From contig CAVUGN010000001.1 of assembly GCA_963741095.1 (NCBI GenBank), positions 79,747 to 143,746 on the forward strand: a stretch of DNA of 64,000 nt, read 5' to 3'. This document shows, piece by piece, positions 18,535 through 59,822 of the stretch. Below the pieces are notes generated by a model. The model had not been told where the DNA came from. It did not search any database and worked only from the letters and a program-made list of their open reading frames with translations. Position numbers and translations under genes: made by a program. Positions within the stretch are counted from its first letter, which is position 1; each line of letters starts with the position of its first letter. Source of the DNA: an uncultured Candidatus Micrarchaeota archaeon (GTDB lineage Archaea > Micrarchaeota > Micrarchaeia > Micrarchaeales > Micrarchaeaceae).

Positions 18535-19909
18535 CGCAAGCAGAACGTACGAATTCGAAGGGCTAGAAATCTTTATACCAACACCGGTTATTGCAGACTC
18601 AGTGCAGATTTATATCCCTTTCCGAATATTTTGGAGGATGTTGTTCGGGGACAAAGAGGGGATGGCGCAACCAATGCGCAGATGCAGATTACCTAATGCA
18701 ACCGATAAGATAGGTATAAATACGTTTACGCCGTATACATTATGCTTCTTTCTGTTGTTTTTTGTTTGGTTAGAGTGAAAATTCCTGTTTGGAATTGGAT
18801 GTAGTCTTGAGGACGTGTATAGCGAAGAACTGCAACCAACAGTTGGTTAAGTTTAAAGACTCCAGTCGATGCTGCTGGAGGGCACCGCTATCAGATTTCG
18901 ACAGCCATGCAAGTCGGCTCAACCACCTGGTTGGGCGGCGTACGGCTCAGTAACACGTAGTCAATCTACCGCAAAGAGGCGAATAACGTTGGGAAACTGA
19001 CGCTAATGCACCATAGGCTATGACACCTGGAAGGAGTCATAGTTTAAAGGGACATGAATTGTAGTGTTTCCACTTTGCGATGAGGCTGCGGCGGATCAGG
19101 CAGATGGCGGGGTAACGGCCCACCATACCAATAACCCGTAGGGGATGTGAAAGCATAAGCCCCGAGAAGGGCACTGAGACAAGGGCCCTAGCGCTACGGC
19201 GTGCAGCAGGCGCGAAAACTCCACAATGTGCGAAAGCATGATGGGGGGAATCTGAGTGATTCACTTCGGTGAATCTTTTGCTAAGTACAGCAAGCTTGGC
19301 GAATAAGTGCTGGGCAAGACCGGTGGCAGCCGCCACGGTAATACCGGCAGCACAAGTGGTGTCCACGATTATTGGGCTTAAAGCGCTCGTAGCTGGCCGA
19401 AGCCGTCTCATGTAAAATATTGGTGCTTAACATCAATGCGTGCATGAGATACCCTTCGGCTTGGGAGCGGGTGAGGTCAGGAGTACTTATGGGGGAGGGG
19501 TAAAATCCTGTAATCCTATAAGGACTAACGGTGGCGAAGGCGCCTGACCAGAACGCATTCGACAGTGAGGAGCGAAGGCTAGGAGAACGAATCGGATCAG
19601 ATACCCGAGTAGCCCTAGCAGTAAATTATGCAGACTCTGGTGTTACAAACATCTCGAATGTTTGTAGTACCGTAGCGTAAGTGTTAAGTCTGCCGCCTGG
19701 GGAGTACGGCCGCAAGGTTGAAACTTAAAACAATTGGCGGGGGAGCACCACAAGACGTGGATGCTGCGGTTTAATTGAATACATCGTCGGAAATATTACC
19801 AGAAGCGACGGCAGTGTGAAGGTCAGACTAAAGATCTTACCAGACGAGCCGAGAGGTAGTGCATGGCGATCGTCAGCTCGTGGTGTGAACTGTCCGGTTA
19901 AGTCCGGTA

Positions 19910-20416
19910 AGCTGGCGAGTGGTACAAATGACAAAGAAACTTGAATTGAATCCAGACTTGAGTTACATGCTTGGTCTGCATCAGTGCAACAAGCAGGATT
20001 CTTATGTAGGCGTAGCTTCAGCAAGCAACGAGCTCATAGAGAGATTCGTGAAGCTTGCGTTGTACGACCTGAAGATCGAGCCGAACAAGATTCTTGTCGA
20101 GGAGGGAAAAGCGATTTTCTACAACTCGAAGATAAGGAAATTGTTCGACAGTGCTCTTGGAAGAAGGATAAAGATATTCAAGTACCGAAACGAATACGCA
20201 TCAAACTATCTTGCAGCCTTATACGACTGCAACGGTGGCGTAGACAGGAAAGGCCTCTTTCTGAGGAACCTGGAAGGTGCGGATGAAATGATCATGGAGA
20301 ACATCGGATTCCACTCCGCGAAAGCGGGGTCAAAGAATTACGTGTTCAACCAGGGATGAGTTTCTCACGTTTATCAGGCCCTACAGTATTAGGGCAAACC
20401 ATTCGCCCGCCCGGTA
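19910..20416 (+). mobile_element. archaeal rRNA intron (507 nt, BHB-type) at about E. coli 1101/1102
   Basis: CCGG-TAA at both junctions; terminal stem GGCGAGTGGT/ACCATTCGCC; removal restores GTTAAGTCCGGTAACGAGCGAGACCC. Confidence 0.92.
19928..20359 (+). CDS. intron-encoded degenerate LAGLIDADG homing endonuclease-like protein, apparent frameshift near the 3' end
   Basis: LSYMLGLHQCN and YLAALYDCNG resemble two LAGLIDADG helices; a +1 frame continues DEFLTFIRPYSIRANHSPAR to TAA at 20417. Confidence 0.7.
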   Translation: MTKKLELNPDLSYMLGLHQCNKQDSYVGVASASNELIERFVKLALYDLKIEPNKILVEEGKAIFYNSKIRKLFDSALGRRIKIFKYRNEYASNYLAALYDCNGGVDRKGLFLRNLEGADEMIMENIGFHSAKAGSKNYVFNQG

Positions 20417-21017
20417 ACGAGCGAGACCCTCGCTGACAGTTGCAACGGGTTTAGAGATAAATCCGGCACTCTGTCGGGACCGCCTCTGTTTAAAGAGGAG
20501 GAAGGAGAGGGCCACGGTACGTCAGTATGCTCTGAATCTTCTGGGCCACACGCGGCATACAAAGGTTGGCACAATGAGATGCAATGCCGAAAGGCAAAGC
20601 CAATCCCCAAAAACCAACCTAAGTTCGGATTGAGGGTTGAAACCCACCCTCATGAAGCTGAAATGTCTAGTAATCGCTTGTCACCATCGAGCGGTGAATC
20701 TGTCCCTGCTCCTTGCACACACCGCCTGCCAAGTCACCTAAGTGGGGTCCTAGTGAGGCAGCACCTTAGGGTGCTTTCGAGTTAGGGTTCTATGAGGAGG
20801 GCTAAGGCATAACAAGGTATCCGTAGGGGAACCTGCGGATAGATCACCTTAAAACTTCGAGAGAAGTTACATAGTGTGCACAGGTTGCGTCTTCGTACAT
20901 TAAATCCTCAAGACTACAAAATTCTTTTTTTAATCGAATCGGAAAGGCGGGCGAGAGTAACTCTTTTTTGTTATGCCCACTACTTATGAAAAAGCGTATT
21001 GGAAAGGTATAAGTATG

Positions 21018-21046: not shown

Positions 21047-21265
21047 ATGAAAACGATAATGTTGAGCGACGAAGCTTACAATAAGCTATTGTCGATAAAG
21101 GGCACAAAAAGTTTCACAGAGCTGCTCTCTGAGATTGTTGACAAACTTAGGAGTGATAAGATGAGTGATATAGACAGATTCTTTGGGATGATGAAAGATA
21201 GTGAAGCCGAAGAACTGCGTGGATTCGTTAAGATGTCTCGGGAATCTGCAAAGGCGAGATTATGA
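21047..21265 (+). CDS. vapB: VapB-type antitoxin
   Basis: MKTIMLSDEAYNKL..K..KSFTE; overlaps the downstream PIN gene (ATGA). Confidence 0.85.
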   Translation: MKTIMLSDEAYNKLLSIKGTKSFTELLSEIVDKLRSDKMSDIDRFFGMMKDSEAEELRGFVKMSRESAKARL

Positions 21266-21660
21266 AACTTTTCTTGGACTCTTCGGCACTCATAGATTTT
21301 TTTAATGGAGATACTTTGATACAAAATAGAATACACGCTGCAGACAAGATCTGCACCAGCGTCGTATGTGCATACGAAGTTTTGATAGGCGAAAGATACA
21401 AGGAGTTGAAAGGCTTGAAGTCGTCTTATGATAAAGTTTCCCAGTTCTTTGATGAGATAGAGACTTTGCCTTTCACCTACTTAAATTCGATAAAGGCAGC
21501 TGAGCTGTCTGCTAAACTCGTATTGAAAGGGAAGAAAATGAATGGACTCGATGTAATTATAGCCGCTCAGGCAATAACAGAAAATGCTTGTTTGCTGACA
21601 AAGGATAGCGATTTTAAAGTTATACAGAAAACTGCCCCCGAGCTGGTTTTGGATAGATAG
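21262..21660 (+). CDS. vapC: VapC PIN-domain toxin
   Basis: FLDSSALID, YEVLIG, DVIIAAQA, LLTKDSDF. Confidence 0.93.
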   Translation: MKLFLDSSALIDFFNGDTLIQNRIHAADKICTSVVCAYEVLIGERYKELKGLKSSYDKVSQFFDEIETLPFTYLNSIKAAELSAKLVLKGKKMNGLDVIIAAQAITENACLLTKDSDFKVIQKTAPELVLDR

Positions 21661-59705: not shown

Positions 59706-59822
59706 TGGCGGGGGCGAGATTTGAACACGCGACCTCTAGATTTCTCTTCACAGCGTTTGCTCCGCACTCACAATGCTTTTGCATATGAGTCTAGCGCTCT
59801 AACCAGGCTGAGCTACTCCGCC
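59706..59822 (-). tRNA. tRNA with CAU anticodon (probably elongator Met) and a 42-nt intron at 37/38 (59742-59783)
   Basis: GGCGGAG..GCTCAGCCTGGTTAGAGC, CTAGA-CTCATA/intron/A-TCTAG, GTTCAAATC. Confidence 0.85.

Follow-up and report, generated by a model that had tools for sequence, protein, structure and literature searches.

A probable bulge-helix-bulge intron after position 1101 of Micrarchaeota 16S rRNA and its apparently vertically inherited, likely non-nuclease LAGLIDADG gene

The 16S ribosomal RNA (rRNA) gene of an uncultured Candidatus Micrarchaeota archaeon is interrupted by an insertion of 507 nucleotides (nt). The gene lies on contig CAVUGN010000001.1 of assembly GCA_963741095.1 (1.08 Mb in 11 contigs, 94% complete), of which we analyzed positions 79,747 to 143,746, a stretch of 64,000 nt hereafter called the window; the insertion occupies window positions 19910–20416 on the + strand. 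We consider it likely that this segment is an archaeal bulge-helix-bulge (BHB) intron lying between Escherichia coli positions 1101 and 1102 in Micrarchaeota 16S rRNA, and that it carries a vertically inherited host gene whose LAGLIDADG-type product probably does not cut nucleic acids. The intron is of an ordinary kind and sits at a site that has already been reported. What is new is the picture of a spliced intron of the relaxed HBh′ form, which an ε2-type endonuclease would serve, together with the exact junction and, above all, the behavior of the gene inside it.

The archaeal small-subunit (SSU) rRNA model of Rfam (RF01959) matches the window at 18859–20852 (+; 1314 bits, model positions 1–1478), a span of 1994 nt for a model of 1478 positions, and the surplus forms one block in hairpin h35. 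Exon alignments place exon 1 at 18859–19909 (+), ending in GUCCGGUA (E. coli …U1100 A1101), and exon 2 at 20417–20852 (+), beginning with ACGAGCGAG (E. coli A1102…), and the 507-nt gap between them, 19910–20416, equals the length skipped by RNA contigs and has homologues in 25 relatives. Read directly, the 5′ junction is …GTTAAGTCCGGTA|AGCTGGCGAG, with the intron side opening AGCTGG, and the 3′ junction is …CGCCCGCCCGGTA|ACGAGCGAG, with exon 2 opening ACGAGCG; excision of the 507 nt restores GTCCGGTA/ACGAGCGAG, just as an earlier note, made from the sequence alone, had read it. Because the 7-nt CCGGTAA is common to both junctions, the sequence by itself permits a cut anywhere between E. coli 1094 and 1102, and for the same reason the cmscan gap is shifted leftward to after GUUAAG, leaving 508 unaligned bases. 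An alignment of 40 distinct Micrarchaeota introns removes this ambiguity: GUCCGGUA is invariant in all 40 and exon 2 always starts with ACGA, the last two intron bases vary (UA in 16, AA in 21, UU in one, AU in two), and GGUA|ACGA is the sole cut that retains the conserved A1101 in 40/40, which confirms the coordinates 19910–20416. Mapped on the annotated 1542-nt E. coli 16S gene, the junction falls between A1101 and A1102, in conserved sequence on the 3′ strand of h35. The earlier note's cut after the second bulge base on each side, at about position 1101, thus holds to the nucleotide, and the RNA contigs, which skip exactly 507 nt, agree with it.

The site had nevertheless been seen before, and the earlier note's suggestion of a distinct, uncatalogued insertion locus has to be given up: the same insertion was already reported in ARM-1, ARMAN-2 and Mia14. 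For ARM-1, the published description has the 16S gene interrupted by 522 bp that encode a hypothetical protein; the insertion is assigned to “E. coli position 1093” and has a counterpart in ARMAN-2. The ARM-1 protein is 25% similar to the one inside the ARMAN-2 16S gene, and its function and the splicing of the insertion are stated to be not known (Sakai et al. 2022, PMC8784108). Mia14 and related clones are likewise said to have 16S introns (Golyshina et al. 2017, PMC5498576). The 522-nt ARM-1 insertion (L097, AP024486.1) aligns end to end with the window intron and has the same junctions, identifying it as the same element, and a complete relative genome (G010) also carries the intron. The 7-nt junction repeat probably explains the “1093” label used for Micrarchaeota. 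Where the literature gives position 1093, a hypothetical protein without homologues beyond ARMAN-2 and an open question about splicing, we find the junction 1101|1102, a BHB motif, joined RNA and a LAGLIDADG fold; and the protein family proves to be present in 300 of 401 genomes of the phylum, often outside the intron. No BHB motif, LAGLIDADG fold, missing catalytic residues or free-standing orthologues were described for this element in the full texts searched, which included few subscription journals and no supplements.

Elsewhere in the archaea, Jay and Inskeep (2015, PMC4496867) list 16S BHB introns of Thermoproteales, Desulfurococcales and Aigarchaeota at loci 374, 548, 722, 781, 803, 901, 907/908, 919, 978, 1093, 1205, 1213 and 1391, with 1101 not among them. 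Like the Micrarchaeota intron, these are endonuclease-spliced elements at conserved 16S positions, often with one- or two-motif LAGLIDADG genes. The Thermoproteales locus 1093 lies in the same hairpin, h35, at face value 8 nt upstream of 1101, but the two may be one site numbered from a left-shifted alignment; the CCGGTAA repeat lets alignments move the window junction to 1094.

The two junctions come together in a structure that is conserved across the 40 introns. In both a ViennaRNA cofold and a fold of the whole region, exon CCGG at 19904–19907 (+; E. coli 1096–1099) pairs with intron CCGG at 20411–20414 (+) to form a 4-bp central helix (H), UAA at 19908–19910 (+) forms a 3-nt bulge with the 5′ splice site after 19909 (UA|A), and an intron stem (h′) follows, the arms of which, 19911–19923 and 20398–20410 (both +), make standard pairs at 12 of 13 positions in gapless register, with one U/C mismatch and one G·U. 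The earlier note had counted this stem as 10 bp, which is too short. The 3′ splice region, UA|A at 20415–20417 (+) with the splice site after 20416, is assigned from the alignment and the junction reading and is not closed by an exon helix: 19900–19903 and 20418–20421, the candidate strands of an outer helix, are noncomplementary, as that note had observed in calling the motif relaxed. Of its two 3-nt bulges, the 5′ UAA appears in the fold; on the 3′ side, the minimum free energy (MFE) structure instead pairs UAAC with exon GUUA, a pairing not conserved in relatives. We rejected GUUA/UAAC as a candidate outer exon pairing, since the UA is changed in 24 of the 40 introns, which end in AA, UU or AU. 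The strict hBHBh′ form, in which two 3-nt bulges are each closed by helices, does not apply, for the 5′ bulge is closed by h′ and the 3′ side lacks the exon helix h; the motif is a relaxed one of the kind termed HBh′ (PMC3239211), still inside the archaeal BHB intron class.

Covariation, counted on 15 pairs in the 40 introns aligned with 30-nt flanks, bears this structure out. Standard pairs fill 94.8% of the 600 cells as against 83.4% in shuffles, none of 500 shuffles reaching as high, and sliding the partner by 1–3 columns lowers the paired cells to 25–47%. The central helix is paired in every intron (160/160 cells, including three G·U), its intron strand being CCGG in 37 introns and CUGG in three, and the 5′ bulge reads UA|A in 36 and UA|U in four. 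Within h′, 10 of 11 pairs change on both sides (90 cells), and an intron's own 5′ and 3′ arms pair at 11.7 of 13 positions on average versus 8.5 when an arm is matched with that of another intron (gapless count). The 5′ arm of h′ also contains a conserved GAGUG box just before the start of the open reading frame (ORF). In its fuller form, GAGUG(A/G)U (window 19917–19930 and the homologous positions of relatives), this box lies 5–8 nt before the ORF's ATG and, as taken from the alignment, looks like a Shine-Dalgarno sequence that would pair weakly with the 3′ end of the 16S rRNA, GAUCACCU; the likeness falls within the h′ arm, so that the intron stem could mask the ribosome-binding site of the ORF.

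RNA contigs, together with this covariation, make it very likely that the intron is spliced. A search of public RNA data returned 19 metatranscriptome rows containing 0.23–0.42 of the sampled words, and the best four runs, from four studies, were examined as contigs. Contigs that skip 507 nt (19903>20411, ambiguity 7) occur in three of the four, at depths of 287, 1230 and 515; intron-covering contigs, some of them spanning the border of exon 1 and intron, occur in all four at depths of 4–30, and the joined-exon contigs are 12–89 times deeper. The joined contig of run X4 (record 28) extends 162 and 208 nt on its two sides, those of runs X1 and X3 are weak, with a shorter side of 23 nt, and in the fourth run an 11-letter loose end at 19910 resembles exon 2. 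All six exon 2 differences between the joined contig and the window match G001, a same-genus genome that has a 506-nt intron in its DNA. The check for spliced rRNA that the earlier note had called for thus came out positive in a relative of the same genus, and its description of a protein-coding, BHB-type intron stands on both the covariation and the exon-joining contigs.

Two other accounts of the insertion meet this evidence. Under the first, the insertion is not spliced at all but is retained as an expansion segment or removed without ligation, so that the 16S rRNA would end up in fragments, as happens with bacterial intervening sequences. Splicing was called uncertain by Sakai et al. 2022 (PMC8784108), and low-depth contigs from RNA libraries do cross the border of exon 1 and intron; however, the 12- to 89-fold excess of joined exons, a junction structure that covaries as a BHB motif and the placement of the insertion within conserved h35 sequence leave this account very improbable. 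The second would make the element a self-splicing group I or group II intron, and Nawrocki et al. (2018, PMC6125680) do record group I introns in Micrarchaeota rRNA genes, both at large-subunit (LSU) sites and at SSU/1498. Yet none of Rfam's intron families attains its gathering score in the window, and the ORF fills the intron nearly end to end, with no room for a ribozyme core, so that we give this possibility almost no weight.

A BHB intron calls on an endonuclease and a ligase, and candidates for both are encoded in the genome. Its one gene for a transfer RNA (tRNA)-intron endonuclease, EndA, specifies 398 amino acids (aa) that match PDB 4FZ2 over their full length (E 8e-175); 4FZ2 is the ARMAN-2 enzyme (PMC3488258), and by this sequence criterion the EndA of the window's genome is of the ε2 (ARMAN-2) type. 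ARMAN-2 EndA, of the three-unit ε2 type, cuts BHB motifs of pre-tRNAs, the strict as well as the relaxed kind, in vitro (PMC3239211), and we infer that its counterpart here would cleave the 16S intron RNA. RtcB is also encoded (557 bits). In the mechanism that we propose, exon CCGG (19904–19907) would pair in the pre-rRNA with intron CCGG (20411–20414) to give the covariation-backed central helix, presenting the 5′ splice site within the UA|A bulge closed by the intron helix with its 13-nt arms, and the 3′ site in an unclosed UA|A just past the central helix. On each side EndA would then cut behind the second base of the bulge, leaving the exons to be ligated by RtcB, as the enzymes present and the ARMAN-2 biochemistry suggest, and the intron would, by analogy, probably be released as a circle. 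A tRNA gene with anticodon CAU at window positions 59706–59822 (−) has an insertion of ~44 nt just after the anticodon (Rfam 50.3 bits; missed by ARAGORN) and is probably a second substrate of the splicing endonuclease.

The intron is not peculiar to this genome, and its recurrence at one site goes well beyond coincidence. Sixty relatives from the same order were sampled, and the window's exon ends were aligned to the 47 that have a 16S match: an insert of 489–553 nt occupies the same site in 24 of them, 22 have none, and the contig of G009 begins inside the insert, bringing the total to 25/47. In the public species-representative collection, a DNA pattern built on the 5′ junction matched at least 120 stretches, 27 of which have a 16S-like context while the remainder do not; they include further copies of the intron on contigs with Micrarchaeota or Micrarchaeia in their titles, one of them the complete ARM-1 genome, AP024486.1. 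The DPANN host proposed in the earlier note is in keeping with these titles. One of the 27, a bacterial contig (L057), was rejected as a chance match to the pattern, with no rRNA by Rfam. Another, titled Candidatus Marsarchaeota (L131), carries the intron with an ORF that nests among Micrarchaeota family f1, and is probably mis-binned or mislabelled. One intron (L132) reaches 593 nt, with an AT-rich extra segment of ~70 nt that separates the stop codon of the ORF from the 3′ arm of h′, and two 16S genes are longer still (G064:C1:257842-260860, 3019 nt; G045:C16:1108-3382, 2275 nt), pointing to insertions beyond the 1101 intron; G064 has, in addition, a second, weak LAGLIDADG-like match in a 328-aa frame nearby.

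Each intron consists of little more than its ORF. In 25 introns measured, the ATG lies 15–22 nt past the 5′ splice site and the stop codon anywhere from 41 nt before the intron's 3′ end to 17 nt inside exon 2; over the set of 40, the longest frame starts at intron position 6–33, in most cases 15–33 nt after the 5′ splice site. The window ORF, at 19928–20359 (+), encodes 143 aa plus a stop and is C-terminally truncated, full-length relatives having 157–176 aa. Alignment to the 506-nt intron of a same-genus contig (L030) traces the difference to one extra base in a GGG run (20352–20356, +) that shifts the frame and costs ~20 residues. The extra base, near 20354, is missing from the relative's RNA contig in run X3, and among 16 proteins clustered at 90%, eight have 162 aa and only the window's copy has 143. 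The truncation is either a real frameshift, a step of decay, or an assembly error.

Homology at the level of sequence is faint. A search for homologous proteins returned six close relatives, the members of the 90% cluster are named “hypothetical protein” or not at all, NCBIfam gave nothing consistent for 24 members of the family, and the family profile found one weak match in the PDB, to PI-PfuI (E 0.12). The fold is clearer. An AlphaFold model of the full-length L030 ORF, which is 94% identical to the window copy, was built on a 24-sequence alignment and has a predicted local distance difference test (pLDDT) score of 93.8 and a predicted template modeling (pTM) score of 0.89; its second domain is a full α-β-β-α-β-β-α unit and its first domain lacks one strand. 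Foldseek places E-DreI and I-DmoI at the top, followed by PI-SceI, the TliVMA intein, WhiA, PI-PfuI and I-Tsp061I (query-normalized template modeling [TM] scores of 0.54–0.67), and of 38 PDB matches at E ≤ 0.001, all are LAGLIDADG proteins among the matches listed. As modeled, the product has a compact, single-chain, two-domain LAGLIDADG fold.

What this protein lacks is the metal-binding acid of a LAGLIDADG nuclease. As read from alignments, neither D nor E is found at motif position 8 in any of the 24 aligned members or of five distant ones, in either motif: in motif 1 the position is taken by N, S, R, G or K, and motif 2, of the form (Y)xAGxFDxxG, has N, A, R, C, S, I or M at the position that a profile alignment matches with E250 of PI-PfuI. 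With the acid missing from both motifs, the product is most likely not a nuclease. The earlier note's LAGLIDADG-like gene is thus upheld as a matter of fold and not in the sense of a homing endonuclease.

Comparison with I-DmoI sharpens the point. This enzyme, encoded in the 23S rRNA intron of Desulfurococcus mobilis, is a monomeric LAGLIDADG endonuclease with two motifs, and its catalytic acids are D21 and E117. Apart from the chimera E-DreI, it is the best structural match (PDB 1b24, 2vs7; TM 0.63–0.67 over 171–187 columns), and it shares with the Micrarchaeota protein a small size, a pseudo-dimeric build from a single chain and a gene inside an archaeal rRNA intron. Its solved chains have about 175–190 residues versus 157–176 in the intron ORF, and the identity is 13–15%. 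The title of one I-DmoI PDB entry names the substitution E117A; in the intron ORF, the equivalents of both catalytic positions are nonacidic. WhiA (3hyi, 3hyj) offers a parallel in that a LAGLIDADG scaffold that had lost its catalytic acids was retained for binding nucleic acids, in a conserved host gene, although WhiA is bacterial and larger and has an extra helix-turn-helix domain.

The gene's distribution is that of a host gene. Its family profile matches 300 of 401 genomes sampled across the phylum, almost always once per genome, with 76/76 and 30/30 matched in two other families (the tally includes G074 and G206, which are flagged as unpublished; no other claim rests on either). In the order sample, exactly one match was found in 51 of 61 genomes, and nine of the ten without a match also lack a 16S match. 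Inside the 1101 intron are 26 of these copies. A further 18 stand free in genomes with an intronless 16S gene, on its strand and downstream of it at distances of 118 to 17,796 nt (within 4.5 kb in 17 cases), one is upstream on the opposite strand, two are on another contig and four belong to genomes without an assembled 16S gene. The free-standing copies have AT-rich upstream regions of their own. That they might be 23S introns was considered and rejected, with no LSU match in seven loci and complementary flanks in one of 21 at z below −2 in a crude duplex test. Both states, intronic and free, also occur among five genomes checked from other families of the class.

A maximum likelihood tree of 69 proteins, from which identical proteins, the partial ORFs L004 and L048 and the weak second LAGLIDADG match L176 were omitted, follows the host families. 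The clade of family f3, with a support of 100/99, holds eight intronic, nine free and two unplaced copies, and the label “intron or free” changes 12 times on the tree, at least five of them on well-supported branches. By contrast, the 16S introns of Thermoproteales, Desulfurococcales and Aigarchaeota were described as grouping by geography and not by genus (PMC4496867). The ratio of nonsynonymous to synonymous substitution rates (dN/dS) is 0.07–0.25 in 13 of the 14 pairs that gave a value and 0.38 for the window copy and its nearest relative (16 pairs were tried, two giving no dS because of saturation), from which the ORF appears to be under purifying selection.

These data bear directly on the classical view of such an element, in which the ORF encodes a working homing endonuclease of the LAGLIDADG family that cleaves 16S rDNA lacking the intron, at the 1101 site, and thereby spreads the intron horizontally. 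The fold and its closest solved counterpart, the archaeal intron enzyme I-DmoI, would suit such an element, as would the patchy occurrence of the intron, present in 25 of 47 relatives with a 16S match that are interleaved with intronless ones, and the neighbors of the ORF in a protein language model, which include the I-PogI family and rRNA-insertion endonucleases of candidate phyla radiation (CPR) bacteria. But the catalytic acid is missing from both motifs in 24/24 aligned and 5/5 distant members, there is a single copy per genome, free-standing orthologues are kept in genomes whose 16S gene is intronless and uncut, the ORF tree tracks host families, and dN/dS is low in 13 of 14 pairs; we regard active homing as unlikely. 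One copy per genome, a host-like tree and free-standing orthologues together make a pattern that is, as judged from genome sequences, that of a host gene and not of a mobile endonuclease.

Two further systems help to place this gene. LAGLIDADG intron maturases are non-nucleolytic proteins that serve their own group I intron. The Micrarchaeota protein differs from them in that it is kept even without the intron, and because intronless genomes retain the gene, its function would not be limited to splicing or spreading the intron. In CPR bacteria, rRNA genes contain insertions with LAGLIDADG genes, at least one of which is reported to encode an active endonuclease (PMC11270868). These insertions too are protein-coding, reside in rRNA genes of ultrasmall symbionts and include families among the language-model neighbors of our ORF; unlike the Micrarchaeota intron, they are bacterial and have no BHB motif or EndA system.

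Several observations weigh against a spliced intron with a conserved, domesticated LAGLIDADG gene. On the RNA side, the contigs come from a close relative of the same genus and not from the strain of the window, at least 31 letters on both sides are found in just one joined contig out of three, and all of them are compatible with an intronless strain, or its DNA, in the same samples, since DNA can contaminate RNA libraries; no back-joint of a circular intron was listed among the RNA contigs of the four runs, although contigs cannot show absence. On the structural side, the 3′ splice site is unclosed, and in the MFE fold its UAAC is paired with exon GUUA and does not form a free bulge. As regards the protein, Pfam LAGLIDADG_3 scores 15.3 bits on the window ORF, below the cut-off of 22.5, and matches nine of 24 members at E ≤ 1, the best at 6.4e-5; no PDB sequence match was better than E 0.12, the ORF searched against PDB chains giving chance hits at E around 1. 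A frameshifted single copy is awkward if the protein is indispensable, unless the frameshift is an assembly error. Of the 401 genomes, 101 have no match to the profile, including nearly all of families f11 (1/21 matched) and f15 (1/8 matched). Finally, the ORF tree is unrooted and so does not decide whether copies moved from the intron to the free site or in the reverse direction.

If the gene is a host gene, what might its product do? Our best guess, from the fold and from its linkage, is that it binds nucleic acids in a task connected with the 16S gene or with maturation of the 30S subunit. A fuller scenario can be offered only tentatively: a domesticated, non-cutting LAGLIDADG protein, near-universal and single-copy in Micrarchaeota, may act on the 16S gene, its transcript or the nascent 30S; its gene may have moved repeatedly between the 1101 intron and a free site after the 16S gene; the intron may persist as the carrier of a host gene that is co-expressed with rRNA; and some excised circles may contain an endless reading frame. 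Six of the 40 introns (L025, L026, L031, L032, L036 and L037) have such a frame if circularized, their length being divisible by 3 with no in-frame stop. In five others, the circularized frame meets a stop two codons past the junction (tail …LPGK*), and in three introns a UA|A stop straddles the 3′ splice site; intron length is a multiple of 3 in 24/40, a count that is no test because the sequences are related.

The surroundings of the 16S gene add some detail. A Rfam scan found no 23S gene within the 64-kb window. A perfect 13-bp inverted repeat, GTAGTCTTGAGGA / TCCTCAAGACTAC at 18801–18813 and 20905–20917, brackets the 16S gene, with a T run behind it, and probably forms the pre-16S processing stem; relatives keep its 3′ half after their own 16S genes. 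Some 200 nt past the 16S gene, where many relatives carry the free-standing LAGLIDADG-like gene, the window has a pair of ORFs at 21050–21657 (+), overlapping by one base; the products are an antitoxin of VapB type (PF02697, E 1e-17) and a protein with a PIN domain (PF01850, E 3e-13).

The spliced intron provides a sequence-level answer to the question, left open by Sakai et al. 2022, of whether the 16S insertion is removed in the only thermoacidophilic Micrarchaeota culture. The exact junction, 1101|1102, allows Micrarchaeota 16S sequences to be trimmed and numbered correctly. On DNA templates, an intron at 1101 presumably also interrupts the site to which the common “1100” reverse primer binds. 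A relaxed-motif rRNA intron is here linked to the broad-specificity ε2 endonuclease, until now discussed for tRNA introns. The gene itself may be a clear natural case of the domestication of a homing endonuclease, one orthologue without catalytic acids that resides either in an rRNA intron or beside the rRNA gene, which would make the fate of intron genes after the loss of mobility directly testable. It also points to a widely conserved protein in an archaeal phylum with very small genomes.

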